Below are positions 5,422-59,045 of a stretch of 64,000 bases of DNA, piece by piece (positions within the stretch are counted from its first letter, which is position 1; every line of letters starts with the position of its first letter). Below the pieces are notes generated by a model. The model had not been told where the DNA came from and made no database searches. It saw only the letters and a list, made by a program, of their open reading frames with translations. Source of the DNA: Methylotenera sp. (GTDB lineage: Bacteria; Pseudomonadota; Gammaproteobacteria; Burkholderiales; Methylophilaceae); the NCBI GenBank assembly GCA_046594885.1, contig JBKJRD010000014.1:9901-73900 (forward strand), read 5' to 3'. The translations under genes and the position numbers were made by a program.

Positions 5422-5459
5422 ACTTAACACTATTTTTTACCTAAAAAATAGTGTTAAGT
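5422..5459. repeat. Perfect 18-bp inverted repeat (ACTTAACACTATTTTTTA / TAAAAAATAGTGTTAAGT) after pyrD; probable terminator-like hairpin carrying two copies of the GTGTTAAGT motif
   Basis: Read directly from the sequence: arms 5422-5439 and 5442-5459. Confidence 0.9.
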
Positions 5460-5475
5460 CGTTTACGTAGGTAAA

Positions 5476-6081
5476 ATGCTGCCCATTCTATATTCATACC
5501 GTCGTTGCCCTTATGCCATGCGCGCCAGACTGGCGATTGATGCTGCTGATATTGCAGTTGAATTACGTGAAATATCGCTACGCGATAAACCAAAACACAT
5601 GTTGCAAGTGTCGCCAAAAGGCACAGTGCCAGTGCTGATACTGCCTAACGGTGCCGTTATTGAGCAAAGTTTAGAGATAATGTGTTGGGCTTTGCAACAC
5701 AATGACCCACAAAATTGGCTAGATGCAGATTTTGGCAAGATGCAGGCGTTAATCGCTAAAAACGATACGTCTTTTAAAAATGCCTTAGATGGTTATAAAT
5801 ATCCTGAGCGCAATTTACACACTCAAATGCATTATCGCCAGCAGGGTGAGATTTTTTTACAGCAACTAGACAGTTTACTCAATGTACATACCTATCTGCT
5901 TAAAGACACCGCCAGCTTGGTTGATATGGCAGTTTTTCCATTTGTGCGCCAGTTTGCGGCGGTTGATTCAGCTTGGTTTGGGGGAGCAAATTATCTCAAG
6001 TTAAAAATTTGGCTTGATGCTTTAGTTAACTCCGCATTATTTGAACGTGTGATGCAAAAACAGCCAACTTACATTGCATAA
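5476..6081 (+). CDS. Glutathione S-transferase family protein
   Basis: Motifs YSYRRCPYAMRARLA, SPKGTVPVL and EQSLEIM; C-terminal DMAVFPFVRQF. Confidence 0.9.
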   Translation: MLPILYSYRRCPYAMRARLAIDAADIAVELREISLRDKPKHMLQVSPKGTVPVLILPNGAVIEQSLEIMCWALQHNDPQNWLDADFGKMQALIAKNDTSFKNALDGYKYPERNLHTQMHYRQQGEIFLQQLDSLLNVHTYLLKDTASLVDMAVFPFVRQFAAVDSAWFGGANYLKLKIWLDALVNSALFERVMQKQPTYIA

Positions 6082-6103
6082 GTTGGCTGTTTTTGCATTA
6101 AAG

Positions 6104-8383
6104 CTACTGTGCCGTTTCTAACAAAGCGTCGCGCGAATGCTTATCTTGACTAAAAACTAGTTCCACTTGTTCGCTGTCATCAATATCGACATGCACCGCG
6201 CCACCATTACTCAAACGGCCAAATAACAATTCATCAGCCAAGGCTTTGCGAATCGTGTCTTGAATCAAGCGTGCCATTGGACGTGCGCCCATTTGCGGGT
6301 CGAAACCTTTTTTACCCAAGTAAGTTTTAAGCGCATCACTAAACGTCACATCCACTTTTTTCTCATGTAATTGGTCTTCTAATTGCATCAAGAATTTATC
6401 CACTACGCGGATAATAATGTCTTGCGATAAGCTGCCAAACGAAACGGTTGCATCTAATCGATTACGAAATTCTGGCGAAAATAAGCGTTTGATATCTGCC
6501 GCTTCATCACCTGCTTCTTTCAAATTCGTAAAGCCAATACTGGATTTAGCCAAGTTTTCAGCGCCAGCATTGGTGGTCATGATAATCGTCACATTTCTAA
6601 AGTCCGCTTTGCGGCCATTATTATCGGTGAGCGTGCCGTGATCCATGACTTGCAACAGGATATTAAAAATATCGGGATGCGCTTTTTCAATCTCATCCAA
6701 CAATAAAACGCTGTAAGGCTGTTTGGTGATTGCTTCGGTCATCAAGCCACCTTGCTCAAAACCCACGTAGCCAGGCGGCGCACCAATCAACCGACTTACC
6801 GCATGACGCTCCATATATTCACTCATATCAAAGCGAATCAATTCCACGCCCATAATGTAAGCCAATTGCTTGGCGACTTCGGTTTTACCCACACCAGTTG
6901 GCCCGCTGAATAAGAAACTACCAATAGGTTTATTGTTTTGACCCAAGCCACTGCGCGCCATTTTAACGGCAGATGTCAGCACTTCAATGGCTTTGTCTTG
7001 ACCAAAAACCACCGCTTTTAAATCACGCTCTAAAGTTTTTAGCGCACTGCGGTCATCGCTGGAAATATTTTTGGGCGGAATACGCGCAATTTTAGCGACG
7101 ATATCTTCAATCTCTTTATTGCCAATCACTTTTTTCTGCTTGTTTTTTGGCAAAATGCGCTGCGCTGCGCCTGCTTCATCAATCACATCAATTGCTTTAT
7201 CAGGCAAGTGGCGGTCATTTATATACTTAGCAGCTAGCTCTGCCGCAGTAGTCAACGCGCTAGCGCTATACTTAACACCGTGATGTTCCTCAAAACGCGA
7301 TTTTAAACCTTTTAAAATCTCAATGGTTTCAGCAATACTGGGTTCAACCACGTCTACTTTTTGAAAGCGGCGACTTAACGCGTGATCCTTCTCAAAAATA
7401 CCGCGATATTCTTGATAGGTTGTCGCGCCTATGCATTTAAGTGTGCCATTTGAAAGCGCTGGTTTTAGTAGATTGCTTGCATCCAAAGTGCCGCCACTAG
7501 CGGCGCCTGCACCAATTAAGGTATGAATTTCATCAATAAATAAAATCGCATCGGGTTTTTCGGCAAGTTGTTTCATCACCGCTTTTAAGCGTTGCTCAAA
7601 ATCACCGCGATATTTGGTGCCAGCCAATAGCGCACCCATATCCAATGAATACACGGTTGCGTTTGCCAATACTTCTGGAATTTCTTTTTCTACAATGCGA
7701 CGTGCTAAACCCTCGGCAATCGCCGTTTTACCTACACCTGCTTCACCCACTAAAAGCGGATTGTTTTTACGGCGACGGCAAAGTGTTTGAATCACGCGCT
7801 CGATTTCGGGGCCGCGACCAATTAGCGGGTCAATCTTTCCTGCTGCTACTTGCGCATTTAAATTAAGCGTAAAGTTTTCTAGCGCACCATTTGGCGCAGC
7901 TTCTGCTTCAGATTCAATTTCTGCGCCTTCAGGTTTCACGTCGCCTTCTGGTATTTTTGCAACGCCATGCGAAATGAAATTCACCACATCTAAACGTGTG
8001 ATGCCTTGTTGATGCAAGAAAAATACCGCGTGTGAGTCTTTTTCACCAAAAATGGCAACTAGCACATTGGCGCCAGTGACTTCTTTTTTGCCAGATGATT
8101 GCACATGTAACATGGCACGTTGAATCACGCGTTGAAAGCCAAGTGTTGGCTGCGTATCAACTTCATCGGTGCCGTTAACGATTGGCGTGTGTTCTTCAAT
8201 ATAATGATTTAACTCATTACGCAACACATCAAATTTTGCGCCGCATGCGCGCAAAACTTCCGCCGCAGTCGGGTTATCAATCATGGCTAATAGTAAGTGT
8301 TCAACCGTAATGAGTTCATGACGTTTTTGTCTTGCGTCCATAAATGCCATGTGCAAACTGACTTCAAGCTCTTGCGCGATCAT
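6104..8383 (-). CDS. clpA: ATP-dependent Clp protease ATP-binding subunit ClpA
   Basis: Two AAA+ modules (GEAGVGKT, GPTGVGKT). N-domain begins MIAQELEVSLH; start placed at 8383 rather than the track's 8425. Confidence 0.97.
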   Translation of the reverse strand: MIAQELEVSLHMAFMDARQKRHELITVEHLLLAMIDNPTAAEVLRACGAKFDVLRNELNHYIEEHTPIVNGTDEVDTQPTLGFQRVIQRAMLHVQSSGKKEVTGANVLVAIFGEKDSHAVFFLHQQGITRLDVVNFISHGVAKIPEGDVKPEGAEIESEAEAAPNGALENFTLNLNAQVAAGKIDPLIGRGPEIERVIQTLCRRRKNNPLLVGEAGVGKTAIAEGLARRIVEKEIPEVLANATVYSLDMGALLAGTKYRGDFEQRLKAVMKQLAEKPDAILFIDEIHTLIGAGAASGGTLDASNLLKPALSNGTLKCIGATTYQEYRGIFEKDHALSRRFQKVDVVEPSIAETIEILKGLKSRFEEHHGVKYSASALTTAAELAAKYINDRHLPDKAIDVIDEAGAAQRILPKNKQKKVIGNKEIEDIVAKIARIPPKNISSDDRSALKTLERDLKAVVFGQDKAIEVLTSAVKMARSGLGQNNKPIGSFLFSGPTGVGKTEVAKQLAYIMGVELIRFDMSEYMERHAVSRLIGAPPGYVGFEQGGLMTEAITKQPYSVLLLDEIEKAHPDIFNILLQVMDHGTLTDNNGRKADFRNVTIIMTTNAGAENLAKSSIGFTNLKEAGDEAADIKRLFSPEFRNRLDATVSFGSLSQDIIIRVVDKFLMQLEDQLHEKKVDVTFSDALKTYLGKKGFDPQMGARPMARLIQDTIRKALADELLFGRLSNGGAVHVDIDDSEQVELVFSQDKHSRDALLETAQ

Positions 8384-10183: not shown

Positions 10184-10214
10184 AATAAACAGGTAATCAG
10201 TTTACCTGTTTATT
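10184..10214 (-). terminator. 13-bp stem hairpin downstream of secF
   Basis: AATAAACAGGTAA-tcagt-TTACCTGTTTATT. Confidence 0.6.
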
Positions 10215-11241: not shown

Positions 11242-11297
11242 ATTTTGTACTCTAAAAAGGGTTAACTATTGATTAGCGCCACCAACAATATGCGTAC

Positions 11298-13142: not shown

Positions 13143-13292
13143 AAATGCGGCTCAAAAATACTAAAAATGCACATTAAATTAAGTGACAATTTTAGTTTAA
13201 GTAAAGTGATTAGGTTAAAAAGTTAACACTTTTAAATGGTTAAGTTTTATTAAAACAGCTAGATGCAAACGTTTATAGCGTTTAATTGACAA

Positions 13293-13816: not shown

Positions 13817-16038
<2,222 letters not shown>

Positions 16039-16121: not shown

Positions 16122-16152
16122 AAAACTTAACCCATAAAAAGGGTTAAGTTTT
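16122..16152. repeat. 12-bp inverted repeat AAAACTTAACCC-N7-GGGTTAAGTTTT in the tgt/pssA divergent region
   Basis: Read directly; contains two copies of the GGGTTAAGT motif. Confidence 0.85.
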
Positions 16153-16221: not shown

Positions 16222-17007
16222 ATGGCTATTGTTAAATCACGCGCAACGCGCAAACCAGTCGAAGCATTAAAATCACGCGGCATTTATTTGCTGCCTAATT
16301 TATTTACTTCTGCCGCTTTATTTGCGGGCTTTTACGCCATTGTGCAAGCCATGAACTTTAACTTTGAGCAATCTGCGATTGCCATTTTTATTGCCATGGT
16401 GATGGACGGTTTGGATGGCCGCGTCGCGCGTATGACCAATACCACCAGCGCATTTGGTGCAGAGTACGACAGTTTGTCCGATATGGTGTCTTTTGGCGTA
16501 GCGCCAGCGTTAATCATGTATGTTTGGGCACTCAAACCGATGGGAAAACTAGGCTGGATTGCCGCATTTATTTACTGCGCCTGCGCAGCGTTAAGGTTAG
16601 CGCGTTTTAATACCAAGTTAGAAGACGAACATCAAGATAAACGCTACTTTCAGGGCTTGCCAAGTCCTGCAGCTGCGGCGTTGTTGGCCGGTTTTGTGTG
16701 GGTTTCGTACGAATATAATGTGGATGGACGCGAAATATTTTTTGGCGCGATTCAAATTAAATGGTTGGCATGGGGCTTAACAGTATTTGCGGCAGGCAGC
16801 ATGGTAAGCGATCTTAAATTTTACAGTGCAAAAGATGTTAACTTGAAAGAAAGCGTACCATTTGTGGCTATTTTAGCCATTGTCATGGCATTCGTTTTAG
16901 TTTCATATAGCCCGCCAGAAGTGCTGTTTACGGTGGTTTTGGTCTATGCGTTATCAGGCTATTATTTATGGGCTAAATCCAGATTAAGTAAAAAAATAAA
17001 AATTTAA
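16222..17007 (+). CDS. pssA: CDP-diacylglycerol--serine O-phosphatidyltransferase
   Basis: CDP-alcohol phosphotransferase motif DGLDGRVARMTNTTSAFGAEYDSLSDMVSFG; ALRLARFN. Confidence 0.93.
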   Translation: MAIVKSRATRKPVEALKSRGIYLLPNLFTSAALFAGFYAIVQAMNFNFEQSAIAIFIAMVMDGLDGRVARMTNTTSAFGAEYDSLSDMVSFGVAPALIMYVWALKPMGKLGWIAAFIYCACAALRLARFNTKLEDEHQDKRYFQGLPSPAAAALLAGFVWVSYEYNVDGREIFFGAIQIKWLAWGLTVFAAGSMVSDLKFYSAKDVNLKESVPFVAILAIVMAFVLVSYSPPEVLFTVVLVYALSGYYLWAKSRLSKKIKI

Positions 17008-20689: not shown

Positions 20690-20755
20690 AAAAAGTGTTA
20701 AGTTGCTTTGTTTTAATCTCTTTTTTACTATTTTAATTTACATATTATGGAGTAA

Positions 20756-21421: not shown

Positions 21422-21451
21422 GTGTTAAGTCGATAATGTTACTTATTCAAT

Positions 21452-23747: not shown

Positions 23748-23958
23748 AGCTATCAAGCTAGCTGCAAGTTAATTCAAACTAAGCATTCTGCAAACAAATT
23801 CAAACACCTTAGACACTTTATTATTGCAAAACTAGCTTATTGCTAGGTTTGAATTTATCTGTTTTGATGCGTTAACTTAAAAACGACCACTGTTTTATGG
23901 TGGGTGCTTGCGTAAAAATGAAAGAATATAAAAAGATAATTTATTTAGCAGCATAGCA

Positions 23959-28067: not shown

Positions 28068-28258
28068 ATTAATCTAGAACATACAAGCAACCGGCTCCAA
28101 TGCGGGATTTTTCATCGTGATACTATAAGTTGATGCAATATTTTGCTTAAGTCGCAGAAGGCTTTATTTGGTGTCAGGCATGACTAGTTGTGATTAAATA
28201 CAAGTTGGCGTGATGCAAGCCAATGATTGAACAGCCAATGCTGATATAAGCAGACTTT

Positions 28259-29035
28259 ATGATGATACTTAACCATCAAATTTACCCAATTTTTTTATCT
28301 TTACTACTTTTTTTTTCTGTGAGTGTAAACGCTGCTGAGGCAAATCAAAAAGTAGTTATTTTTGCCGCAGCCAGCTTAACAGATGCGATTAATGCAATCG
28401 CGGATAGTTATGAAAAGCAAAATAATATTGAAATTCAAACTTCATTTGCCGCTTCATCAACGCTGGCTAAACAAATAGAAAACGGCGCACCTGCTGATAT
28501 TTTTATTTCGGCAGACACAAAGTGGATGCAGTATTTAACAGATAAAAATGTGTTAAGTAATACACCTATAATCAATTTGTTGGGTAATCATCTGGTTTTA
28601 ATCGCCCCCAAAGGGCGCGGTTTTAAAGTTAACATGCAAAAATCATTCAATTTTGCGGGCGCCTTTCAAGGTAAGCTTTGTACGGGTGAAACAGAATCGG
28701 TGCCAGTGGGTATTTACGCAAAACAGGCGCTTCAAACTTTGGGTTGGTGGGCTGCAATTAAATCGCGAATGGTGGGTACGCAAGATGTGCGGGCGGCTTT
28801 GGTATTGGTGGAGCGTGGCGAGTGCGCGGCAGGCATTGTTTATAAGACAGATGCTAAAGTTTCAGCTAAAGTAGATATATTGTCGGTTTTTCCCAACAAT
28901 AGCCACGACCCTATTGTTTACCCTTTAAGTTTAACTAAACAATCCAATCCAAACGCAATACATTTTTATAGCTACTTAAAATCAAAACAAGCAAAAGCGA
29001 TTTTTATACAATATGGTTTTCATTTTTTAGAGTAG
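28259..29035 (+). CDS. modA: Molybdate ABC transporter substrate-binding protein
   Basis: Motifs FAAASL, AASSTLAKQIENGAPADIFISA, VPVGIYA and DVRAAL. Confidence 0.95.
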   Translation: MMILNHQIYPIFLSLLLFFSVSVNAAEANQKVVIFAAASLTDAINAIADSYEKQNNIEIQTSFAASSTLAKQIENGAPADIFISADTKWMQYLTDKNVLSNTPIINLLGNHLVLIAPKGRGFKVNMQKSFNFAGAFQGKLCTGETESVPVGIYAKQALQTLGWWAAIKSRMVGTQDVRAALVLVERGECAAGIVYKTDAKVSAKVDILSVFPNNSHDPIVYPLSLTKQSNPNAIHFYSYLKSKQAKAIFIQYGFHFLE

Positions 29036-29756: not shown

Positions 29757-29789
29757 ATACTTAACACGACCATATGACTGAAATTCCAG

Positions 29790-32857: not shown

Positions 32858-33511
32858 TTATTTCACTACTAATCTTGCTTTCGCTGCGCTTTCAGCAGCA
32901 AAAATACTCAATTTTTTCAGTACATTATCCACTGCCAAATTCGCTGCATTGACGCCGCCAATCGGGTTGTCGCTGGCGGCCATTACTTTTTCGTCGAATT
33001 CTTGTGAATCGATTATTTTGCCTGTAGCACTATCAATCACAACCACACGTAACGTAAAGCGCACAACGCTGGGCTGTTGTTCAAACAGTTGCACCAAACG
33101 AATCACTTCTGCTTCTAATCTTAAATCGGTTTTAACGGCGCCTAATTTTGGAATCACAGCGCTAAATTGCCCTGAATTTTTAATTGCCGAAATCATCAGC
33201 GGTTGCAACATGTTCGCTGGCGTATCCACCCATTCATTGCGCGCAAAGTATTCTAGCTGATGCGGTGAACGCGTATACATCATGCGGCGCGTGTCATATC
33301 CAGCAGCAGCTGTGGGCGTGTTAACAATCAACGTAGGCAAGGTTTTATCAGTGGTTAAAAGTTTATTTTGTTGCGTGTTCGTTGACAATTCACTCAATGA
33401 GAAATAAGTGGTTTGCACCGATTGCTTCTTAAGTAAGCCCGAGCAAGCGGATATTGACGACAAAGCCAACAGCAAAAACAAAGTTAACCATTTATTTGAC
33501 ATCATATTCAT
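32858..33511 (-). CDS. ABC-type transport auxiliary lipoprotein (PqiC-like)
   Basis: Lipobox ISAC; motifs YDTRRMMY and EYFARNEWVDTP; last gene of the MCE operon. Confidence 0.85.
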   Translation of the reverse strand: MNMMSNKWLTLFLLLALSSISACSGLLKKQSVQTTYFSLSELSTNTQQNKLLTTDKTLPTLIVNTPTAAAGYDTRRMMYTRSPHQLEYFARNEWVDTPANMLQPLMISAIKNSGQFSAVIPKLGAVKTDLRLEAEVIRLVQLFEQQPSVVRFTLRVVVIDSATGKIIDSQEFDEKVMAASDNPIGGVNAANLAVDNVLKKLSIFAAESAAKARLVVK

Positions 33512-34503: not shown

Positions 34504-34546
34504 TCCTTAATCAGTTAACAATAAATAAAAGTGAATTTTAGCCTAA

Positions 34547-35371: not shown

Positions 35372-36535
35372 TTACAGATTGAGTAAGCTAAATGCCACCG
35401 AAAATATCGCATCGGCCACAATAACTAAAAAAATGGATTGCACTACACTGCGCGTAGTTTGGCGGCCAACACTATCTGCGCCGCCTTTAGTGCGAAAACC
35501 TTGATAGCAACCCACCATGGCGATAATGACGGCGAAAATGGGTGCTTTGCCCACGCCAACCATAAACGCGGTTGGGCTAACGGCTTTGACGAAACGGTCT
35601 AAAAACTCTACAAAGCCCACATCTAACTGTTGATAAGCCATTAACATACCACCAAAAACGCCGAGTATATCGGCAAATACGGTTAACAAAGGCAGCGCGA
35701 TAAAGAGCGCGATGACTTTTGGAATCACCAGTAATTCTTGCGGATTGATGCCCAGCGTTTGCATGGCGTCAATTTCTTCTGTGACCGCCATGGTGCCAAT
35801 TTGGGCGGCATAAGCAGAGCCTGAACGCCCGGCAATAATAATCGCGGTGATGAGCGGGGCGAATTCGCGCAACATCGACAAACCAACTAAATCGGCCACA
35901 AAAATATTGGCGCCATATTGTTTTAATTGGCCTGCGCCCTGGTAAGCCACAACCACGCCCAATAAAAATGCCAATAGTCCGACGATGGGTATTGCATCAA
36001 AACCTGCGCTGCGGATATTAAACAAAATGGGTCGCCAGCGAATGCGTTGTGGATCTGCAATACTTTTGGCTAATGCAATTGCGGTTTCGCCCACAAAACT
36101 CAGCGCACCCATTAATTGCTGCGCAAATTGCACGGTATTTTTGCCGATACGCTCAACAAAGTTTGGTTGCGGATTTAATGCAGATTTGAGGCTATTTTGC
36201 GGGTTAAGTATTGAATTATTTGCAGGCGCATCTGCTAATTGCATGCGGATAATATCTAACCTTTTTTGAAAAACTGGGGTAAGCTGATGCAGCGCTATTA
36301 CGCTATTTTGTTGCGCACAATCTTGTAATAATTTTTGCAAACACCAAGCGCCTACACTATCTAAACTTTCAATTTTGGCACAATTTGCAATGATATCAGC
36401 GTTGGCTGGTAGCGCAATCAACGCCAGTTGCTGCTCAGTTGCCGTTAAATATTGCGCATCCCAGCGGCCAGATAGCTGCAGCTCTGTAGGGCTAAGCTGC
36501 GTAATCGTTGCTGTTTGCTGAGGTTGATGCGACAT
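35372..36535 (-). CDS. MlaE family permease with an N-terminal STAS-like domain
   Basis: Motifs REFAPLITAIIIAGRSGSAYAAQIGTM and EEIDAM; N-terminal LDSVGAW. Confidence 0.92.
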   Translation of the reverse strand: MSHQPQQTATITQLSPTELQLSGRWDAQYLTATEQQLALIALPANADIIANCAKIESLDSVGAWCLQKLLQDCAQQNSVIALHQLTPVFQKRLDIIRMQLADAPANNSILNPQNSLKSALNPQPNFVERIGKNTVQFAQQLMGALSFVGETAIALAKSIADPQRIRWRPILFNIRSAGFDAIPIVGLLAFLLGVVVAYQGAGQLKQYGANIFVADLVGLSMLREFAPLITAIIIAGRSGSAYAAQIGTMAVTEEIDAMQTLGINPQELLVIPKVIALFIALPLLTVFADILGVFGGMLMAYQQLDVGFVEFLDRFVKAVSPTAFMVGVGKAPIFAVIIAMVGCYQGFRTKGGADSVGRQTTRSVVQSIFLVIVADAIFSVAFSLLNL

Positions 36536-36553: not shown

Positions 36554-37501
36554 TTACTTAACCATATTTTGTCGTTGATATTCTTTTCGTTTAATCTGCA
36601 TATAATCATCGCGTTCCAATTCATGCAATTGCAGCGCGTATTCTTCTGTGCTATCAAACCAGCCTTGCAGTCTTTTTTCGAGCTGTTTATCAGCAGGTTG
36701 ATTAAGCGATGCTAGATAAGCGTCGATGGTTAAATAGTAACGCATGGTATTGCGCTCAACTACGCCGCGCACGCCTTGAATATAGTCTGGTTGCGCGTTG
36801 CTAGCTGCGTTGACCCGCGTAAATCCGACTTTGTCTTTGCCAATTGTAGCCAAATAACCTTTCATGGCAATGCGTCCTGCTAAACCAAAAGAATACGCGT
36901 AGGTAAAGTGTAAAAAAGTCTGGTTTTTATTGAGCGGCGTGGCTTCTACCACGATGCGATAATCACTGGTACCCAACGGGCCTTCATTGGCCTTCAGTTG
37001 CACCGAAAAATAGTCAGCCGCAGAGGCTATTTGCTGATAATTAAAGGTAGCTTTATAAGTGTCTGCCAATTCTTGATCGTCTTTTTTACCTAAATTTAAA
37101 TGTAGTAAACTGTTATTTTGGCTATTTTCCGCACCACAGTATTTAACATTTAAATGCAAAATCAGCGCATCACACCAATGCGCAGGATTATTTAGCGCAA
37201 CATTCACCATTGAAAATGGATGATCAAGCACTGCGTATATTTCGCCTTTTAACTGCGCTGGCGATTCGGTCGATTGCAGTACAATTGGACGCTTAAACGG
37301 GTTATCCGATAAGGCTTGTGCTAACGATTGATGCTGATTGAGTAATGTGCTTGCCTGAAGATTAGTTTTTGATTGCGCATTATCCGCCGCTACAGCATTG
37401 GCATCAATTAACAATAAAGCCAACAAAATGGCGCATATATTGTGCAGGTAGCGATTGAATGTTGGCTGTTTAAGTATAGTTAACCCGTTAAAAATCGTCA
37501 T
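36554..37501 (-). CDS. Hypothetical exported protein inside the cls-MCE operon
   Basis: ATG at 37501 preceded by AGGAG; signal-like hydrophobic segment; the track start at 37621 overlaps cls and is unlikely. Confidence 0.7.
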   Translation of the reverse strand: MTIFNGLTILKQPTFNRYLHNICAILLALLLIDANAVAADNAQSKTNLQASTLLNQHQSLAQALSDNPFKRPIVLQSTESPAQLKGEIYAVLDHPFSMVNVALNNPAHWCDALILHLNVKYCGAENSQNNSLLHLNLGKKDDQELADTYKATFNYQQIASAADYFSVQLKANEGPLGTSDYRIVVEATPLNKNQTFLHFTYAYSFGLAGRIAMKGYLATIGKDKVGFTRVNAASNAQPDYIQGVRGVVERNTMRYYLTIDAYLASLNQPADKQLEKRLQGWFDSTEEYALQLHELERDDYMQIKRKEYQRQNMVK

Positions 37502-40436: not shown

Positions 40437-40788
40437 TGTTTATTAAGCCTAATTGCTGGTTGCAAATTCTTCATAGCTAACAATTGTTTTGCAGATCAAC
40501 AATTAATCTGCAAATTTTCAAGCGCTTAGTGGATGGCAAAAAAGTATTATTAGGCTTCTTCACAATCTTTTTTTTAAGAGTTCTAGTTGTGTTTGATTTG
40601 GACACCATCATCAATCACCTTTAACTTAAGGCTATTGCCCATATTAATTAAAATCATGATTTTTGCTGATAATGTACGTTAAAACTAGGTAACAATTTAT
40701 TTAATTTGTTAATCACAACATTCGTTTTAATGACAACTTTTTGCTTAGATATGAGTGTTAAGAGTCTAAATTTTAACAAGCCATCTTT

Positions 40789-43176: not shown

Positions 43177-44337
43177 TTAGCGCTCGTTAGAATAGCCAAT
43201 CAGCCCTAAAAAACCGCGTACCAAAGCATATACAAACCATGAAATACAGCGTTTTGTTAAGCTGCTTTTGGTCCACTCATCTGCCGATACCTGATACGCA
43301 TTGTTGCGGATAGATGCAATTATTTCTGTGCGCAATTCACTCGCAAACGCGCTATCTTGGACCACAATATTGGCTTCACGCGCCAACATCATACTAAACG
43401 GATCAATGTTAGATGAACCGACAGTTGCCCAGTAACTGTCAATGACCGCTACTTTGCAATGCATAAAACTTTGACGATACTCGAATATTTCAATATTATT
43501 TTTAAGAAAAACACTGTAAAAAGCATGCGTCGCAAACATTAAAAAATATTCCATGCGGCCTTGTAACAGTAACTCAATTTTAACGCCACGTTTGGCGGCT
43601 TTAATGAGCGCTTGTCTAAAACGTCTGCCTGGAATAAAGTAGGCGTTAGCGATTATAATTTCAAACTTTGCCGCATGAATCGCAGTGAGATAAGCTTTCT
43701 CTATATCCCGTCTATGCAGCAGATTATCGCGTAATACAAAAGCCGCTTTAACGCCTTTTTTGATGCTTTTTTGGGTGTTAAGTAGGCTTTTGCTTTTCCC
43801 AACATTTGGGCTTTTTAAATGCGTAATCGCTATTCTGCGCCATAATTTTTGCGCACTTTCTGTCATGCTGGGCACTAAAGCGCCTTCAACTTTCACCGCG
43901 TAATCAAGCCTTGGCGGCATATTGTTCGGAACATTATTGTCATCAATAATATTAATGCCGCCCACAAAGCCGATTTGATTATCAATCACCGCAATTTTAC
44001 GATGCAAACGGCGTAAGCGATTTTTTTTGAGTGTCCAAGGCGAAACCTTAGGCCGATAAAACATGATTTGCACGCCTGCTTGTTTAAGCGCTTTTACAAA
44101 ATCTCTGGGCATATTTTTACAGCCAAAACCATCTAGCAATACGCGCACAATAACGCCACGTTGCGCCGCGGCTTTTAACGCATCGGCAATTTGAATACCG
44201 GCCGCATCTGACTCAAATATATAACTTTGTAAATAAACGCTTTGCTTGGCCTGTGTTATGGCTTTAGCCAGCGCAGGAAAAAACGCTGTGCCATTGCGCA
44301 GGAGCTCAATATGGTTGCCAGCAACAAAGTTAATCAT
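43177..44337 (-). CDS. clsB: Cardiolipin synthase B
   Basis: Motifs LHRKIAVIDNQIGFVGGINI and MHCKVAVID, GSSNIDPFS; downstream of a ybhP-like gene as in E. coli. Confidence 0.9.
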   Translation of the reverse strand: MINFVAGNHIELLRNGTAFFPALAKAITQAKQSVYLQSYIFESDAAGIQIADALKAAAQRGVIVRVLLDGFGCKNMPRDFVKALKQAGVQIMFYRPKVSPWTLKKNRLRRLHRKIAVIDNQIGFVGGINIIDDNNVPNNMPPRLDYAVKVEGALVPSMTESAQKLWRRIAITHLKSPNVGKSKSLLNTQKSIKKGVKAAFVLRDNLLHRRDIEKAYLTAIHAAKFEIIIANAYFIPGRRFRQALIKAAKRGVKIELLLQGRMEYFLMFATHAFYSVFLKNNIEIFEYRQSFMHCKVAVIDSYWATVGSSNIDPFSMMLAREANIVVQDSAFASELRTEIIASIRNNAYQVSADEWTKSSLTKRCISWFVYALVRGFLGLIGYSNER

Positions 44338-44346
44338 AAAAGAGTG

Positions 44347-45099
44347 TTAAGTTTTGAGTAACGAAGTGGTTAATATGGCATGATCAGACACTTTTACAAA
44401 GCGTGAGCCAGCATGTACTTGTACGTGCTTAATCTGAAAGCCGCGCACGTAGATGCGATCTAAGCGTAACATAGGCAACCACGAAGGAAATGAGCGTGCC
44501 GATTTGCCAGCATGTTGCTCGAACACTTCTTTAAGATGTAAGCGCGCTGCAAAAATGCGGCCTGCACGTGAGCTCCAATCATTAAAATCGCCAGCGATAA
44601 TCAAAGGCGCATCTGCTGCAATATGCTGTTCAATATAATCTGCCACGGCATTGAGCTGTTGTTGCCGCCACTGTGCAAATAAACCTAAATGGATGCAAAC
44701 AGCGTGTAAAGGCACATCCCAATCGGGTATTTGGATTTCGCAATGCAACATGCCGCGCTTTTCTGATTTGTGCGCAGAGATATCCAAATTGGTGGTCTTG
44801 ATTATCGGAAACTTTGACAGTAAAGCGTTACCATGATGGCCATCAGGATAGGCTGAGTTTTTGCCGTAAGCAAACTCTGACCAAATACTATCTGCTAAAA
44901 ACTCCACCTGGCCCGAAACAGGCCATGCGGAAAAACGCTTGCTATGCAATAAATGCTCATCTTGTACTTCTTGTAGAAAAATCACGTCGGCATGTAAATG
45001 CCGTAATAAATCGCGTTGCTTATGCAGTGAAAAATGGGCGTTAAAGTGACTAAAACCTTTGTGTATGTTGAAGGTGGCAATGCGTAGGGTGTTTGACAA
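44347..45099 (-). CDS. Endonuclease/exonuclease/phosphatase family protein, YbhP-like
   Basis: Motifs TFNIHKG, FLQEVQ, HHGNALLS, AGDFNDW, LDRIY and SDHA. Confidence 0.9.
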   Translation of the reverse strand: MSNTLRIATFNIHKGFSHFNAHFSLHKQRDLLRHLHADVIFLQEVQDEHLLHSKRFSAWPVSGQVEFLADSIWSEFAYGKNSAYPDGHHGNALLSKFPIIKTTNLDISAHKSEKRGMLHCEIQIPDWDVPLHAVCIHLGLFAQWRQQQLNAVADYIEQHIAADAPLIIAGDFNDWSSRAGRIFAARLHLKEVFEQHAGKSARSFPSWLPMLRLDRIYVRGFQIKHVQVHAGSRFVKVSDHAILTTSLLKT

Positions 45100-45191: not shown

Positions 45192-45261
45192 ATTGTATGA
45201 TTTTAAGGGTTAAGTCTGTGTACGATAGCGCACAGCGCACAACGGATTATAAAGCTAAAGT
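45192..45261. promoter_or_regulatory. Candidate bidirectional Crp/Fnr-family site D between ybhP-clsB and the regulator gene
   Basis: TGTACG-ATAG-CGCACA (45219-45234). TAAAGT lies 21 nt downstream on + (45256-45261) and TACAAT 21 nt downstream on - (45197-45192). Confidence 0.75.
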
Positions 45262-46339: not shown

Positions 46340-47359
46340 ATGGCGATTTTAATCACAGGCGGCGCAGGTTATATTGGTTCACATACCTGCGTGCAAATGC
46401 TGGCGGCAGGGCAAGAAATTGTGGTGCTGGATAATTTATCCAACAGCTCAGCAGAGTCGCTTAAACGCGTTACGCAAATTTCTGGCAAAAAATTCCCGTT
46501 TATTCAAGCCGATATTCGCGATAAAACCGCCCTGCGCGAAATTTTTAAAGGTCATGCAATTAGCGCAGTCATTCACTTTGCAGGGCTTAAAGCGGTAGGT
46601 GAATCCGCCGAAAAACCGCAACTATATTACGATAATAACGTGGTTGGCAGCCTTAATTTGTTTGAGGTGATGGCCGAACTTAACGCTAAAAACATTGTGT
46701 TTAGCTCATCAGCCACCGTGTATGGCGATCCACAATCAGTGCCCATTAAAGAAGATTTTCCACTTAGCGCGACGAATCCTTATGGTCGTAGCAAGCTGAT
46801 GATTGAAGATATTTTGCGCGATTTGCACAAAGCCGACAACACTTGGCGCATCGCTTTGCTGCGCTACTTTAACCCAATTGGCGCGCATGATAGCGGCCTG
46901 ATTGGCGAAGACCCCAATGGCATTCCTAATAATTTATTGCCTTATGTGGCGCAAGTAGCCGTGGGCCGTTTGGCCAAATTGCGCATATTTGGTAACGATT
47001 ATGCAACGCATGACGGCACAGGCGTACGTGACTATATTCATGTGATGGATTTGGCAGATGGCCATGTGGCTGCCCTGGATTATTTGTCAAAAAATCAAGC
47101 TATGATGACGGTTAACTTAGGCACTGGCATTGGTTACAGTGTGCTAGACGTGGTACAAGCCTTTGCAAAAACCAGCACAAAAAATATACCGTATGAAATA
47201 TTACCCAGACGTATGGGCGATGTGGCCATTAACTATGCCGATGCAACAGTGGCTAAAACACTGTTAGGCTGGCAGGCAACCCGTAATTTAGACGATATGT
47301 GCCGCGATACTTGGCACTGGCAATCTAGCAACCCGAATGGGTTTGCAAAAAAAGTTTAG
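46340..47359 (+). CDS. galE: UDP-glucose 4-epimerase
   Basis: Motifs GGAGYIGSH, HFAGLKAVGES, YGRSK, LRYFNP and DGTGVRDYIHV. Confidence 0.97.
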   Translation: MAILITGGAGYIGSHTCVQMLAAGQEIVVLDNLSNSSAESLKRVTQISGKKFPFIQADIRDKTALREIFKGHAISAVIHFAGLKAVGESAEKPQLYYDNNVVGSLNLFEVMAELNAKNIVFSSSATVYGDPQSVPIKEDFPLSATNPYGRSKLMIEDILRDLHKADNTWRIALLRYFNPIGAHDSGLIGEDPNGIPNNLLPYVAQVAVGRLAKLRIFGNDYATHDGTGVRDYIHVMDLADGHVAALDYLSKNQAMMTVNLGTGIGYSVLDVVQAFAKTSTKNIPYEILPRRMGDVAINYADATVAKTLLGWQATRNLDDMCRDTWHWQSSNPNGFAKKV

Positions 47360-48557: not shown

Positions 48558-48722
48558 ATGCAACTTAACCATTCAAATCAAACAGAAAAAAATGTACAGC
48601 TCAGCGCTATTGAAAACCAATTAAAAATCATTAATCAAAATCTGCTTAAGGTATTTTGGATAGTCGGTTTTTTTGCCTGTTTATATTTTGGCTTGATGAT
48701 TTATTTCATGTTTTTGCGTTAA
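48558..48722 (+). CDS. 54-aa single-TM small protein, not in the ORF track
   Basis: GAGG ribosome-binding site; translated by hand: MQLNHSNQTEKNVQLSAIENQLKIINQNLLKVFWIVGFFACLYFGLMIYFMFLR*. Confidence 0.55.
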   Translation: MQLNHSNQTEKNVQLSAIENQLKIINQNLLKVFWIVGFFACLYFGLMIYFMFLR

Positions 48723-48778: not shown

Positions 48779-50185
48779 TTGCTACCATCCATCACTTATT
48801 TAGATCTTGAAACCACAGGCGCCACGCCGCTACGTGACCGTATTACCGAAATTGCTTTGGTGCGTTTCGATAATGGTATTGAGACTGCACGCTGGCAAAC
48901 TTTAGTCAATCCAGAGCAGCCGATTCCTGCATTCATTCAACAACTTACTGCTATTAACAATCAGATGGTCGCCACCGCACCACTTTTTAAAGAGGTGGCC
49001 GATACCTTATTAAGTTTTTTAGAAGGCAGCGTTTTAGCAGCACACAATGTGCGCTTTGATCATGGTTTTATTAAGGCCGAGTTTAAACGCATTGGCATTA
49101 CGCTGCGCCAAAAAGTGATTTGCACGGTTAAGCTTTCGCGATTGCTTTATCCACAGCACAAAAGCCACGGTTTAGATGCGATTATGCAGCGCCACAATCT
49201 CACCACCATCGCGCGCCATCGCGCTATGGGCGACGTAGAAGTGATGCTGGGATTTATAGAGTCGGCGCAATTAGAGTTAGGCGATGCTGCCATTAAAAAT
49301 GCGGCTGCAAAATTGATGAGCGCGCCCAGTTTGCCATCGCATTTAGATGCCAATATATTAGACGACATGCCTGAAACGCCTGGCGTTTATTTGTTCTATG
49401 GCGAAAACGAATTGCCACTGTATATTGGCAAAAGTGTCAATATTCGCGCCCGCGTACTCAGCCATTTTAGTAGTGACCACGCCAGCACCAAAGAAATGCG
49501 TATTTCGCAAGAGATTAAGCGCGTGGAATGGATGACTACCGCAGGCGATTTCAGCGCATTATTATTAGAATCAAAGCTAGTGAAAGCACGCCAACCCATC
49601 TATAACCGCCAATTACGTCATGAGCGGCAACTATGCAGCTGGAAACTTAACCCTCATTTTCAAGCAAAAAACTTATTAGAATTAGTACGCGAAAGCGATA
49701 TCAACCCAATGGAGTTAGGCCAATTATTTGGTACCTTTAAAAGCAAGTACCAAGCAGTAGAGAGTTTACGCAGTATTGCCGAAGCGCATCAACTGTGTCC
49801 GCGTTATTTAGGCTTAGAAGCCGCAGGTAGTGGCGCTTGTTTTTCTAGCCAAATCAAACGCTGCAAAGGCGTATGTTGTGGCAAAGAAGCACCTGAAATA
49901 CATTATTTGCGCCTGCAACAAGCCTTAATTGCGCACCGCTTAAAAAATTGGCCGTATGCTGGCAAAATTGGTATTCGCGAACACAGCAGCGAAAACGACC
50001 AAACGCAGTTGCATATATTTGAATATTGGACCTATTTAGGCATGGTTGAAAATGAAGCCGACTTAACTGAAAAACTACAAGAAAATACTGCATTTAAGTT
50101 TGATTTGGATACCTACAAACTGCTTTTAAAAGCGTTTAACAACCCCAAAACACAAGTAATTCAGTTTGCTAATGTAGTCAATTAA
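48779..50185 (+). CDS. DEDDh 3'-5' exonuclease (DnaQ-like) fused to a GIY-YIG (UvrC/Cho-like) nuclease
   Basis: Exonuclease motifs DLETTG, HNVRFD and HRAMGD; nuclease motif PGVYLF...LYIGKSVNIRARV. Confidence 0.9.
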   Translation: MLPSITYLDLETTGATPLRDRITEIALVRFDNGIETARWQTLVNPEQPIPAFIQQLTAINNQMVATAPLFKEVADTLLSFLEGSVLAAHNVRFDHGFIKAEFKRIGITLRQKVICTVKLSRLLYPQHKSHGLDAIMQRHNLTTIARHRAMGDVEVMLGFIESAQLELGDAAIKNAAAKLMSAPSLPSHLDANILDDMPETPGVYLFYGENELPLYIGKSVNIRARVLSHFSSDHASTKEMRISQEIKRVEWMTTAGDFSALLLESKLVKARQPIYNRQLRHERQLCSWKLNPHFQAKNLLELVRESDINPMELGQLFGTFKSKYQAVESLRSIAEAHQLCPRYLGLEAAGSGACFSSQIKRCKGVCCGKEAPEIHYLRLQQALIAHRLKNWPYAGKIGIREHSSENDQTQLHIFEYWTYLGMVENEADLTEKLQENTAFKFDLDTYKLLLKAFNNPKTQVIQFANVVN

Positions 50186-52086: not shown

Positions 52087-52153
52087 ATAGCAGTCATCAG
52101 CGCATTAACGCGTCAACATTAAGCGCTACTTAACACATCAATTGATGCAATAT

Positions 52154-52681
52154 TTACTGCGGGTTCACCGCGCCACAGATAGCGTTCAGCCATTTCCCGT
52201 TAATATCCGCTTGGCCGCTAACTGGTTGGTTGCCTTGTGCTACGCCATCAAATTGGGTTTGTCCTGAAAAACTTTCTGGGCTAGTAATGGTGCCATGCGC
52301 TGTTCCATTGCCAGTTAGCTCATTGCTGGCGCACGAAAAATCCAATTGGTAGTTATTGCCAGAGCGCGTGGCCTTACTTGCCGTGCAACCCAGTTGGTTT
52401 TGATCAAAAGCAGGGAAGCTGTTTTGATTGGCCATTTCTTGCGTGATGCAGGCGGTTGATATTGCCGCACCATTTTCAACTTGCGGTAACTCAAAACCAT
52501 ATTCATTGGCTAAATCTTTAATATTTTGCATTTGATCGGGCGGAATTTGACCCGCGAACCACAACAAATCAGAAGAGGTGGTTATTTCCCATAATCCAGG
52601 CCGCATATTGATATCCACCGCGTTAGCGCTCGTAGTTAACCATAAAAAACCAGCAAAAAAAGTGCGTAAAATTTTATGCAT
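52154..52681 (-). CDS. DUF3617 family exported protein
   Basis: Signal peptide; PGLWEIT; paired Cys; C-terminal GKWLNAICG. Confidence 0.8.
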   Translation of the reverse strand: MHKILRTFFAGFLWLTTSANAVDINMRPGLWEITTSSDLLWFAGQIPPDQMQNIKDLANEYGFELPQVENGAAISTACITQEMANQNSFPAFDQNQLGCTASKATRSGNNYQLDFSCASNELTGNGTAHGTITSPESFSGQTQFDGVAQGNQPVSGQADINGKWLNAICGAVNPQ

Positions 52682-54483: not shown

Positions 54484-54558
54484 ACACTTAACCTATTTTT
54501 TTAGCCAATTTTTGGCGTACTTAAGGCTTAAAATTAGGCAAAAAACTCGCCTTAAAAT

Positions 54559-57165: not shown

Positions 57166-57324
57166 TGAATCAATCAGATGCTATTGGATATCAGCAAAAA
57201 AACTGTAGTGAGAACCGTGTAGTTATGCATAAAGTTGGTGTTTTTTTAGTGTTAAGTAAAAGAGTTGTTTTTAAAATTTCAAGCATCAAATGACAGGCGC
57301 TAGGTTACAATTTGGGTTAATTAA

Positions 57325-57825
57325 ATGTTAGAAATGAATATGCATAAAAGATTTTTAGTTGGGATTACAATTTTTGCAATACATGCTTTATTCTCGATTA
57401 ACGCGCTAGCTGCGCCCAAAAAATTTACTGGTATCAATTATAGTGGAGTCTACGCATGCAAAGGGAGTAATGTAAAAATTGGTAGCTACGAATTAGTGGT
57501 TACATTCACCATGAATAAGGCGAACAGCCGTGGCAAGATTGGCAGTTACGATCTCACCATAGAGACTGAAAACGCCACTCAATATAACGGTCGGGCAATT
57601 GCCAACGGTAAAGATTTGGCTATGACCATTGCAATTGTGGATGGCGATACCCTGACTTACAGCACAGGTATTGCCATCATGCAGCCGGTCAATTCCAAGC
57701 GTTTTAGCTATGTGAATCAGTATTACGAATCTAAACAAACAACGCTTACCTCGGATAACACAGACGCTGGTAATTACGGTTTTGAGCGTTGCATGATGTT
57801 AAAGCCAAAAGTTAAGCAAAATTGA
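57325..57825 (+). CDS. Hypothetical exported protein
   Basis: Signal peptide; beta-rich body; YSGVYACKG. Confidence 0.65.
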   Translation: MLEMNMHKRFLVGITIFAIHALFSINALAAPKKFTGINYSGVYACKGSNVKIGSYELVVTFTMNKANSRGKIGSYDLTIETENATQYNGRAIANGKDLAMTIAIVDGDTLTYSTGIAIMQPVNSKRFSYVNQYYESKQTTLTSDNTDAGNYGFERCMMLKPKVKQN

Positions 57826-57904
57826 GTGTTAAGTTTGCACTATTGAGCCAGCTTATGTCGAAGGGTTACTTTTTGAGCATGGTTAAATCTGTTCAGTCTG
57901 CATG

Positions 57905-58822
57905 TTAATTAGCGCTAGCGCTTGTAGCAGGTTTGATCGCAGAAAGTTGGCTAAATTGCACAATATAATTCTCTAGCCAATTTTGAGCGTGCTGCTTTTG
58001 TTTGCTGTCCGTGCTGGCATGCAGCTCAGCAATGGTATTGCAAATATTTTGCTTATGCTGGTCAGCATAACGTTGATAATCTGCATTTGGGCTATTAGTT
58101 AAGCGCTCAAAACCCGCCTTAATCAATTGCGATTTATCTTCAAAACTAAGCTCGGCACTGGATGATGGACTTTGCAATAGGCCAATAATGTGTTTGGCAT
58201 CGTTGTGTCGTCTTAATATTTCAGCATAGCTTAATGCTGGCTTAAATGGAATTTCATTCAGTTTTAGCTTGAGCATATCTAGTTGAGATTGATTTAGCCT
58301 GCCATAGATTTTTTCAGCATAATCTTGCATTTTCTCAAGCCTAACCGCCAATTGTTCTTGCGGCGAATCTTGCCACCAATCATCTTTCCAATCATTAGCA
58401 CGATCATCTAATTTGTGTTCAAAATATTGCAATTGTTGATTGCTTAATAAAGGCGCCATTTCAATCATCGTCGGGATGGATTCTATGCGAATCTGATTAA
58501 AACTTGCGCTTAATTCATCTAGCTTTTCACAAACTAAACTAGGCGTTATTTGCGGCTGGCTCAGGCTATTTTGTATGTCTTGTAGCTGCATAACATAAGT
58601 AGGCAATTGCTGTTGACGATGCCAATCATGTAAGCGATGTAAGGCAGGATTTAACGCTGCTTTTTGGGCGCGCGTAAAATCGAAGTAATGATCTAACCAC
58701 CAACTTAACGCTTGCGGCGCATTGTTATAGGCGGTTTTAACCAGCGCACAGCTATTGATTGAGCAGGCCAGCAACAGCACAAAAACCAGTTGAATATAAC
58801 GCATATGTTTACGACCCGACAT
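57905..58822 (-). CDS. Lipoprotein, DUF6279-like
   Basis: Lipobox-like INSC; AYNNAPQALSWWLDHYFDF...HDWHR. Confidence 0.7.
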   Translation of the reverse strand: MSGRKHMRYIQLVFVLLLACSINSCALVKTAYNNAPQALSWWLDHYFDFTRAQKAALNPALHRLHDWHRQQQLPTYVMQLQDIQNSLSQPQITPSLVCEKLDELSASFNQIRIESIPTMIEMAPLLSNQQLQYFEHKLDDRANDWKDDWWQDSPQEQLAVRLEKMQDYAEKIYGRLNQSQLDMLKLKLNEIPFKPALSYAEILRRHNDAKHIIGLLQSPSSSAELSFEDKSQLIKAGFERLTNSPNADYQRYADQHKQNICNTIAELHASTDSKQKQHAQNWLENYIVQFSQLSAIKPATSASAN

Positions 58823-59045
58823 TGTTTAGCTAGTTTAACTGAGTCTAGTTTAATTCAATCTAGCTGAATTAAGCTTAGTTTGAATACATGCAATGTAAAG
58901 CAAGCCAATAATGACACTTTGCATCAAAAAAAGTTATCAATATGCAGCCATTTAAAGGGTTAAGTCGCTTGCATTAAACGTACTTGAGTTTAGTTTTGCT
59001 AAACTATTGCGCGCGATAAGGTTAATATAAGGCCTGTCTATTCTG

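Follow-up and report, generated by a model that had tools for sequence, protein, structure and literature searches.

A clade-restricted, two-part DNA motif iterated along a stretch of Methylotenera chromosome: a candidate DNA-uptake signal

In a stretch of 64,000 nt from Methylotenera sp. (contig JBKJRD010000014.1, G+C 42.4%; hereafter the window, for which a gene model with 87% coding DNA has been built from the list of open reading frames), the 9-mer G(G/T)GTTAAGT has been found to form the core of a ~27-bp two-part element, wwwwTTRnnn-W7-n-(G/T)GGTTAA(G/C)T, that recurs at ~0.7 sites/kb, i.e., about once per 1.4 kb, and is shared with the closest relatives. We tentatively interpret this element as a DNA-uptake signal, analogous to the uptake signal sequences (USS) of Pasteurellaceae with their 9-bp core and phased A/T tracts. 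What is new here is a clade-specific iterated motif with an uptake-sequence-like distribution and a putative function. The 9-mer had been pointed out before in a sequence-only reading, which offered an uptake signal, a nucleoid-protein site or an element akin to repetitive extragenic palindromes (REP). The first analogy has been strengthened and the protein site stays as a rival, while the REP-like alternative has lost ground, 40/46 sites being solitary, single copies unfolded and 21 sites genic. The earlier description has also turned out to be incomplete, as it missed the two-part structure with its T at position -14, the equivalent core GTTAACT and the sharing by close relatives.

The over-representation of the core word is pronounced. 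A pattern search on both strands has returned 20 copies of GKGTTAAGT, on the coordinates and strands reported earlier against ~1 expected, and dinucleotide shuffles contain 0.92 copies on average and at most 3, so that 0 of 100 shuffles reach 20. The two forms of the 9-mer contribute 12 (GTGTTAAGT, 0.4-1.7 expected) and 8 copies (GGGTTAAGT, 0.3-1.9 expected) under Markov models of orders 0-5; the enrichment thus persists under the 5th-order null, its loss there having been named as a possible refutation. Orders 6-7 come near the observed counts only because, at a length of 64 kb, such models are trained by the very copies in question. In a ranking of all k-mers of the window by Poisson P, with order-3 and order-4 models as background, the top places at k=7, 8, 9 and 10 are taken by the motif and the words contained in it (ACTTAACAC, P = 2e-12). 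The excess is not local, since the 7-mer core ACTTAAC is present 14 times in every 21-kb third. One-mismatch copies are present at 13237, 35361 and 54486, as reported. Such variants are enriched solely where the change affects one of the two outermost 5' bases or turns G into C at position 8; variants inside the central GTTAA show none within the window. GTTAAG and GTTAAC each occur at about twice the expected number and CTTAAG is not enriched, and GTTAACT is an equivalent core in which G and C are interchangeable.

An alignment of the 20 exact copies in motif orientation, which defines the flank positions, has revealed the second part of the element. The whole element begins with a brief stretch of A/T, continues with T-T-R (-14 to -12), a triplet of mixed composition, an A/T tract of 7 bp and a single base, and ends with the core. 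T is found at -14 in 20/20 copies, and A or T likewise at -17 and -16; position -13 is T or G and -12 is A or G, with the triplet read as TTA in nine copies, TTG in five and TGA in three (17/20). The mixed triplet at -11 to -9 leans towards G/C, whereas the tract from -7 to -1, running either as A's or as T's, is A or T in 85-95% of copies at -7 to -3 and in 65-80% at -2 and -1; a G has never been found immediately 3' of the core. Two A/T tracts are placed beside the 9-bp core, 10-11 bp apart. The distal T extends beyond the exact copies, as it has been seen in 22/30 GTTAACT copies, in 13/21 other NNGTTAAGT copies and at 147/299 GTTAA sites, where ~86 had been expected (chi-square 66). Codon periodicity as its source has been rejected: the same-phase positions -17, -11 and -8 carry no excess of T. 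Starting from the 20 copies, a weight matrix has been iterated at a threshold of 12.4 bits, which admits two false hits in a window simulated at order 3; it converges on 46 sites (0.45-2 expected), and 45 remain at 15 bits against 0.45 in the simulations. Two hits with poor cores, at 10199 and 13206, are probably false members. Our best reading of this architecture is that of a putative recognition element in double-stranded DNA.

The 46 sites are divided into 24 on the + and 22 on the - strand, the lack of strand bias that would be DUS-like (DUS, the DNA uptake sequence of Neisseriaceae), and they interleave along a window across which the cumulative GC skew mostly rises; therefore, a polar word of the type of Chi or of the FtsK orienting polar sequences (KOPS) has been rejected. 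Between genes the sites are 7-8 times denser (25/46, ~2.9/kb) than within them (21/46, ~0.4/kb). Convergent spacers are the most crowded, with 8 sites in 1.8 kb, against 5 in 2.4 kb for divergent and 12 in 4.3 kb for co-directional ones. Among the exact copies, 14 are intergenic, five are genic and one, at 44344, overlies a stop codon, in line with the fifteen intergenic or stop-overlapping copies counted before, and the gene model likewise places the copies at 20695, 21422, 29759, 44344 and 57826 within a few bases of stops. The sites at 21422 and 57826 directly follow a TGA, those at 20695, 29759 and 54486 lie within 2-6 nt of a stop, and at 44344 and 36556 the site supplies the stop codon or runs into it; where a site abuts a stop, the upstream half of the element occupies the last codons of the gene. 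The genic sites comprise 12 in sense and 9 in antisense orientation and make use of every frame that does not read TAA, stop-containing frames being avoided, and the peptides encoded there are unrelated, namely (W/G/A)-L-(T/S), V-(K/N) and (L/V)-N. Because sense and antisense copies, many frames and unrelated peptides are found together, the signal resides in the DNA and not in a transcript or a protein.

Closer relatives have been obtained by protein searches as contigs syntenic with the window, here called L181, L183, L184, L185, L189, L192 (Methylophilaceae bacterium 11) and L195 (labelled Methylotenera sp., with a RecQ 90% identical). The gene orders in question are clpS-corC-secF-secD-yajC-tgt-pssA-leuA-eamA-HAD-ccsA-ffh and GSDH-cls-EEP-crp-galE-MOSC-exo-recQ. 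GTTAAGT has been counted 41 times in the window (10.1 expected), 15 times in L183 (3.9), 9 in L181 (2.0), 9 in L184 (2.3), 10 in L185 (3.2), 8 in L189 (3.1) and 5 in L192 (2.2). The extended matrix at >=15 bits finds 45 sites in the window, 7 in L183 and 4 in each of L181, L184 and L185, where simulations of the relatives give 0-0.15; L189 and L192 have 0, and ten more distant Methylophilaceae loci 0-1. The 21.8 kb of L195 contain 9 sites at the 12.4-bit threshold, 3 exact 9-mers among them, and T is found at -14 in every exact 9-mer listed for L181-L184. Over the stretch syntenic with L181-L185, the density amounts to ~0.65 sites/kb in the window vs 0.2-0.34 in these relatives. Loci at 82-86% identity of the HAD protein have no sites, and in 100 loci of distant relatives (RecQ at most 83% identical, in one-genome-per-species contigs; the 507-aa protein at most 68% identical, in metagenomes of the Joint Genome Institute, JGI) neither the motif nor an iterated word of their own has been found, in samples of ~20 kb and hence limited power. 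Because the five nearest relatives carry the element, it is the property of a small clade, densest in the lineage of the window, and not an oddity of the window itself. Two further outcomes that had been named as possible refutations, an excess confined to the window and a motif equally common in unrelated AT-rich genomes, have not been observed; even the related A/T-rich ones do not have it as commonly.

By sequence comparison, the number of sites appears to be maintained and rising within this clade, and their positions are not maintained. The window, L181 and L183 have a palindrome, AAACTTAACCC-N7-GGGTTAAGTTT, upstream of pssA; its arms are the same in all three, and its loop varies. As the right arm, L185 has TGGTTAACT and L184 has TGATTAACT, and L189 and L192 are without the palindrome. 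The site at the eamA stop (20695) is common to the window, L181 and L183. L184 and L185 have at this place GCAGCAAGCTGC followed by TTTGTT, a small terminator-like GC hairpin that differs from the motif at 5/9 positions between flanks that align. A further site, between secD and yajC, is common to the window and L183. Of the seven window sites in 10.6 kb aligned with L195 (77.7% nucleotide identity), one is shared in full, two are shared in the core only and four are private to the window; of five L195 sites, four are private to L195. At 49645 the peptide K-L-N-P-H-F-Q is replaced by K-L-N-T-N-F-E in L195, and the DNA retains core, A/T tract and TTG alike, the sole core change being the permitted G/T alternation. 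In PssA, six relatives read D-I-N-L (GAT ATT AAC/T), and the window alone reads D-V-N-L (GAT GTT AAC T), which creates a core. That the number has been kept and the places turned over argues against operator, promoter or terminator roles and favours a force acting genome-wide.

We rank an uptake signal first because the features combined here are the known signature of uptake sequences: a sharp core, ~0.7 sites/kb, no strand polarity, genic copies in multiple frames, a pile-up at 3' ends, a minority of inverted pairs, restriction to a single clade, positional turnover and the overwriting of conserved residues. We know of no other class that has all of these together. A DNA receptor of the competence machinery, at the surface or in the periplasm, would bind the core, and the flanking phased A/T tracts would ease the bending of the DNA into the pore. 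Motif-bearing DNA of the same species would be taken up preferentially and then recombined, and uptake together with recombination would act as a drive that makes the motif abundant at every place that tolerates it. Every one of these mechanistic steps, i.e., competence, receptor, uptake bias and drive, we infer. Concerning the sequence itself, the element is, as far as its letters can tell, unrelated to any known USS or DUS; with its core G(G/T)GTTAAGT or GTTAACT, membership in the DUS family (GCCGTCTGAA and dialects) or in the USS family (AAGTGCGGT/ACAAGCGGT) has been rejected, and it would be an analogue at most.

Several observations weigh against this assignment. No competence gene, pilin or receptor has been found in the window or in the relatives' loci obtained, and no natural transformation has been reported for Methylophilaceae in the literature searched. 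T(-14) is more strictly kept than the A/T tracts of USS, as if a protein touched the DNA at two points, and a DNA-binding protein of the cytoplasm would fit this equally well. The pssA palindrome, positionally conserved in a divergent promoter region, looks like an operator. The more distant relatives are without a dialect of their own, whereas the whole family of Neisseriaceae carries dialects. Finally, all of the evidence is distributional and comes from 64 kb and ~130 kb of relatives' loci.

As the main rival to the uptake signal we regard a binding site for a chromosomal protein that would be abundant and clade-specific, and perhaps nucleoid-associated, chromosome-organising or self-marking; we hold this rival to be rather unlikely. 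Such a protein would contact the GTTAAS core and T(-14) across a bent A/T spacer, and selection would act on the density and not on the exact position of its sites. The two-part motif with its invariant distal T and intervening A/T tract would be expected from it, as would sites that are independent of orientation and both genic and intergenic, and the palindromic double site conserved at the tgt|pssA promoter region would find a place. Readers of GTTAAGT arrays do exist, as judged from an iteron-like GTTAAGTTTnn array with an 11-bp period in the viral database IMG/VR. Known nucleoid proteins, however, have degenerate sites and are not known to make a single 9-mer the top word of a genome. They are also usually family-wide, whereas the loci at 82-86% HAD-protein identity have no sites, and the preference for convergent 3' ends together with the fast turnover is atypical of architectural or regulatory sites. 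No candidate protein has been identified.

Improbable in our view is a by-product of biased mutation, repair or methylation, in which a clade-specific methyltransferase or mismatch-repair activity at GTTAAS would turn near-matches into matches. Comparable processes are the word biases caused by very short patch (VSP) repair in E. coli and the palindromes of the HIP1 type (highly iterated palindrome 1) of cyanobacteria. The twofold enrichment of both GTTAAC, a palindrome, and GTTAAG, with none of CTTAAG, is in keeping with it, and so are the swaps of G and C at orthologous sites, the origin of new cores by single substitutions (ATT>GTT) and the one-clade restriction with graded density. A short-patch bias nevertheless gives no account of an invariant T at a distance of 14 bp, of the A/T tract or of the G(G/T) preference, and neither the 7-8-fold intergenic excess and the pile-up at gene ends nor the five substitutions within 9 bp at the eamA site would follow from it.

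Very improbable, and largely refuted, is a structural RNA or DNA element, either a palindrome of the REP or bacterial interspersed mosaic element (BIME) type spread by a REP-associated tyrosine transposase (RAYT), or a shared terminator stem. Three inverted pairs do fold well. Perfect pairs are only 5422/5451 and 16125/16141, the two hairpins described before, which fold at -18.3 kcal/mol (5422-5459, z -6.3) and -14.9 kcal/mol (16122-16152, z -4.8), and 32823 folds with a degenerate partner at 32855-32863 at -9.4 kcal/mol (z -3.9). Many copies also lie just after stops and in convergent regions, and in reverse orientation a T run often follows the core. On the other side, the imperfect pair 13221/13237 and the single copies fold no better than shuffles (z ~0 for singles), 40/46 sites are without an inverted partner beyond chance, and for 15/20 exact copies the best partner within 70 nt equals the random null. 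The element is not REP-like because three pairs only can form hairpins, and REP/BIME has been rejected as its units are not palindromic, 21/46 sites are genic and single copies are unfolded; no transposase is present within the window. An intrinsic terminator has been rejected in the same way, since only the pairs fold and singles occur in both orientations, and the perfect pair 16125/16141 is located between the divergent starts of tgt and pssA, where a terminator has no use. As both orientations are present 3' of genes, no common reading at the level of the transcript is available.

A promoter (the TTG-like triplet at -14 as -35, TAAGT as -10) or the operator of a global regulator (a response-regulator or Crp-family half-site), to which TTA, TTG or TGA in 17/20 copies, copies 50-90 nt upstream of some start codons and the conserved double site before pssA might point, is highly improbable, because sigma-70 is excluded by a TTR-to-TAAGT spacer of 12 bp instead of 17 +/- 1, by the lack of a -10-like hexamer after the core and by the eight of 25 intergenic sites that point into convergent 3' ends, and because 21 sites are genic, a site every ~1.4 kb exceeds by far what a regulon would have and the positions are not conserved between relatives. 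Other known sites that have been compared and rejected for misfit of sequence or spacing, none of them occurring at ~1/kb, are those of IHF and Fis, the CtrA, PrfA and DnaA boxes, CIRCE (the controlling inverted repeat of chaperone expression), the XerD arm of dif (7/9 match), sigma-E and sigma-54 promoters and type I restriction sites. Rfam has returned tRNA-Lys only for the window, and a simple promoter/terminator scan noise only.

Returning to the uptake signal, a wider evolutionary claim can be put forward with similar caution. Sequence-specific DNA uptake has been known for more than forty years in only two families, both animal commensals or pathogens, and the origin of uptake self-recognition is debated between molecular drive and selection. 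A Methylotenera-like sub-clade of soil and freshwater may have evolved such uptake independently, as a third lineage and the first outside host-associated bacteria, with a signal wwwwTTRnnnW7n(G/T)GGTTAAST that would converge on the USS layout and be expanding (~0.2-0.4 sites/kb in relatives vs 0.7 here). The literature searched holds no uptake sequence outside Neisseriaceae and Pasteurellaceae and no such motif for Methylophilaceae, and the four 9-mers have been met there only as incidental primer fragments and the like. If the claim is true, a third, independent uptake-signal system exists in free-living methylotrophs, the density gradient together with the overwritten residues and terminators provides a natural series for the origin and spread of uptake signals, and natural transformability is predicted in a group of C1 biotechnology that is now without such a genetic tool. 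If a DNA-binding protein reads the sites instead, a new and unusually specific chromosome-wide protein-DNA system is at hand. In both cases the motif serves as a sharp genomic marker of the clade and, within it, of native versus acquired DNA.

As to the latter, four stretches of the window are atypical in G+C content, at 13-15 kb (0.35), 26-28 kb (0.52), 39-41 kb (0.36) and 61-64 kb (0.37). Together they cover 10.1 kb and hold 2/46 sites vs 7.3 expected (Poisson P ~0.02, a small sample). The earlier statement that no exact copy lies in 13817-14902, 24147-28067 and 61600-64000 is correct and, taken alone, non-significant for 20 copies (~2.3 expected); sites appear to be fewer in atypical or strain-variable DNA, in the direction noted and with modest support. 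The stretch 13817-14902 is a gene of 361 aa (G+C 0.35) between yajC and tgt, with no match in NCBIfam. In all syntenic relatives (L181-L192) yajC and tgt are adjacent and this gene is missing, and strain X2 (one of two soil-metagenome strains, X1 and X2) has almost no depth at 13.7-15.0 kb and 61.3-62.4 kb missing or diverged. As the sequences stand, the gene is a recent insertion. A tRNA-Lys gene is located at 24071-24143, and a 31-nt direct repeat of its 3' end (24118-24148 and 25251-25281, 1.1 kb downstream) brackets an insert with one gene for a secreted protein (24500-25033), an arrangement that resembles a scar left by an integrated element, or what remains of one. In L183 and L189, ffh is directly followed by orthologues of the window genes 36554-39035; in the window, 12.8 kb (~23.7-36.5 kb; tRNA-Lys, norB-like, modABC, asmA-like, mla-like operon) lie in between. 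The part at 24.1-28.07 kb, with the norB-like gene (G+C 0.52), has no motif sites, and the DNA from 28 kb onward is site-rich and therefore looks like a rearrangement of native DNA. The sites of the window are collected in Table 1.

Table 1. Matrix sites of the two-part element in the window, with the position of the core, its strand, its surroundings and, where given, the matrix score
Class	Sequence	Position	Strand	Context	Bits
Exact	GTGTTAAGT	5422..5430	-	intergenic pyrD/GST-like; left arm of pair 5422-5459	26.9
Exact	GTGTTAAGT	5451..5459	+	right arm of pair 5422-5459; 17 nt before start codon at 5476	
Exact		7270..7278	-	in clpA, sense; read G-V-K-Y	
Exact	GGGTTAAGT	16125..16133	-	left arm of palindrome AAACTTAACCC-N7-GGGTTAAGTTT, divergent tgt/pssA	
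Exact	GGGTTAAGT	16141..16149	+	right arm of the same palindrome; 72 nt upstream of pssA	
Exact		20695..20703	+	6 nt after eamA stop	
Exact		21422..21430	+	directly after HAD gene TGA; specific to window's lineage	
Exact		28550..28558	+	in modA, sense (V-L-S)	
Exact		29759..29767	-	2 nt after modB stop, before modC	
Exact		32769..32777	-	convergent intergenic	29.7
Exact		32823..32831	-	degenerate inverted partner 32855-32863	
Exact		36201..36209	+	in mlaE-like gene, antisense (L-N-P)	
Exact		43775..43783	+	in cls-like gene, antisense; absent at orthologous place in L195	
Exact		44344..44352	+	its TTA is the stop (TAA on -) of gene 44347-45099; absent in L195	
Exact		45207..45215	+	divergent intergenic; L195 retains GTTAAGT there	
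Exact		49645..49653	-	in exonuclease/Cho-like gene, antisense; orthologous copy in L195 (GTG for GGG)	
Exact		52128..52136	-	42 nt after recQ stop, convergent; absent in L195	
Exact		57249..57257	+	divergent intergenic	
Exact		57826..57834	+	directly after TGA of gene 57325-57825	
Exact		58957..58965	+	divergent intergenic	
Extended	TGGTTAACT	2877..2885	+	in gene	22.0
Extended	TTGTTAACT	4765..4773	-	in pyrD, antisense	
Extended	GGGTTAACT	11259..11267	+	intergenic secF/secD	22.9
Extended	GTGTTAACT	13221..13229	-	imperfect inverted pair with 13237, no significant fold	
Extended	TGGTTAAGT	13237..13245	+	intergenic secD/yajC; orthologous copy in L183	
Extended	ATGTTAACT	16835..16843	+	in pssA; from window-specific ATT>GTT (I>V)	
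Extended	GCGTTAACT	23869..23877	+	intergenic after ffh	
Weaker	TGCTTAAGT	28144..28152	+	upstream of modA	15.5
Extended	TGGTTAAGT	28267..28275	-	start of modA, antisense	
Extended	ATGTTAACT	28627..28635	-	in modA, antisense	
Extended	GTGTTAACT	30861..30869	+	in asmA-like gene	
Extended	TGGTTAACT	33482..33490	-	in gene, sense	
Extended	TTGTTAACT	34513..34521	-	intergenic	
Extended	GCGTTAAGT	35093..35101	-	in mlaF-like gene	
Extended	TGGTTAAGT	36556..36564	-	into stop codon (GTT AAG TAA); L183 orthologue CCGTTAACT	
Extended	GGGTTAACT	37478..37486	-	in gene	
Weaker	GTGTTAAGA	40755..40763	+	intergenic, low-GC stretch	15.3
Extended	CGGTTAACT	47109..47117	+	in galE	
Extended	TGGTTAAGT	48563..48571	-	start of MOSC gene; absent in L195	
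Extended	TGGTTAACT	52634..52642	-	in gene	
Extended	AGGTTAAGT	54486..54494	-	2 nt after stop codon	22.9
Weaker	GCCTTAAGT	54519..54527	-	same convergent region as 54486	19.2
Extended	GCGTTAACT	60036..60044	+	in GGDEF/EAL gene	
Extended	CGGTTAACT	61844..61852	-	in gene; only site in low-GC right end of window	
Doubtful	AGGTAAACT	10199..10207	-	inside ordinary 13-bp hairpin 10184-10214, probably not a member	
Doubtful	GTGATTAGG	13206..13214	+	barely over threshold	13.1

Some further observations have been made. A gene for a Tle1-like lipase of the type VI secretion system (T6SS) lies between HAD and ccsA in L184 (10770-11944), L185, L189 and L192, and not in the window, L181 or L183; in L184 and L185 a motif site is found at its upstream junction. 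At 52960-57165 the genes for a 507-aa sulfatase-like protein and an 868-aa glycosyltransferase are convergent in the window and co-directional and adjacent in distant relatives (L087-L098), a difference in orientation that indicates an inversion; the convergent spacer holds the sites 54486 and 54519. At 58978-58990, just downstream of the copy at 58957, two small deletions and four substitutions set both soil-metagenome strains, X1 and X2, apart from the window, which makes this a local hypervariable spot. Two other words of the window are over-represented. AAGGTTTCG occurs six times vs 0.3 expected (6301, 12377, 23024, 23090, 44041 and 61258), each time on the - strand (CGAAACCTT on +), and is a candidate strand-polar word; GCAATTGCA, in part the palindrome TGCAATTGCA, occurs 14 times vs ~3.5 expected (e.g., at 3415, 17272 and 36624). 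The viral array mentioned above belongs to L175 (IMGVR_UViG_3300021399_000107), a 165-kb IMG/VR contig with ~30 GTTAAGT in non-coding DNA at ~6250-7250, mostly as tandem 11-bp units GTTAAGTTT(A/G)(G/T); it is iteron- or centromere-like and has no evident link to the clade. A scan of viral contigs for inverted motif pairs has otherwise given matches that are mostly due to chance.

Among the known systems of iterated words, Chi and KOPS are likewise over-represented oligomers spread along a chromosome, but they are co-oriented with replication, unlike the interleaved sites of both strands found here. HIP1 (GCGATCGC) shares with the motif a short, lineage-specific word that is hugely over-represented in coding and non-coding DNA; it is, however, a perfect palindrome linked to a methyltransferase, whereas GTTAAGT is non-palindromic and its element two-part and asymmetric. 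REP/BIME with RAYT are also short repeats, common after genes and sometimes in inverted pairs, but the REP unit is an imperfect palindrome of 20-40 bp and extragenic, whereas here single copies are unfolded and 46% of the sites are genic. USS and DUS have a density of ~0.8/kb, as obtained from published counts and general genome sizes. These counts are 1,465 USS cores for Haemophilus influenzae and 1,892 DUS for N. meningitidis (PMC7811141), and about half of uptake sequences lie in terminators, the intergenic ones being often inverted repeats (bioRxiv 10.1101/2025.10.24.684340). With the DUS of Neisseriaceae (AT-GCCGTCTGAA, receptor ComP) the motif has in common a host among Betaproteobacteria, the bias to intergenic DNA and 3' ends, inverted pairs that can terminate, the restriction to a lineage and perhaps a depletion in acquired DNA. 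It differs in its unrelated sequence, in its two-part structure, which DUS do not have, and in the lack of family-wide dialects, as distant Methylophilaceae loci have nothing comparable. From the USS of Pasteurellaceae it is set apart by an unrelated core, by a host that is a betaproteobacterial methylotroph, by a much stronger intergenic bias and by an invariant T(-14) where USS tracts are loosely conserved. The USS is described as a core with an A/T tract pair beside it that is proposed to assist in kinking the DNA at the secretin (PMC7811141), and it is to this layout that the element comes closest: a sharp 9-bp core with two helically phased A/T tracts on one side (Hin AAGTGCGGT, Apl ACAAGCGGT), ~0.7-0.8 sites/kb on both strands, genic and intergenic copies, some inverted pairs at gene ends and the avoidance of stop-containing frames. 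For USS the predicted receptor is ComN/PpdA, and it is in its distribution that the Methylotenera motif would resemble an uptake signal.

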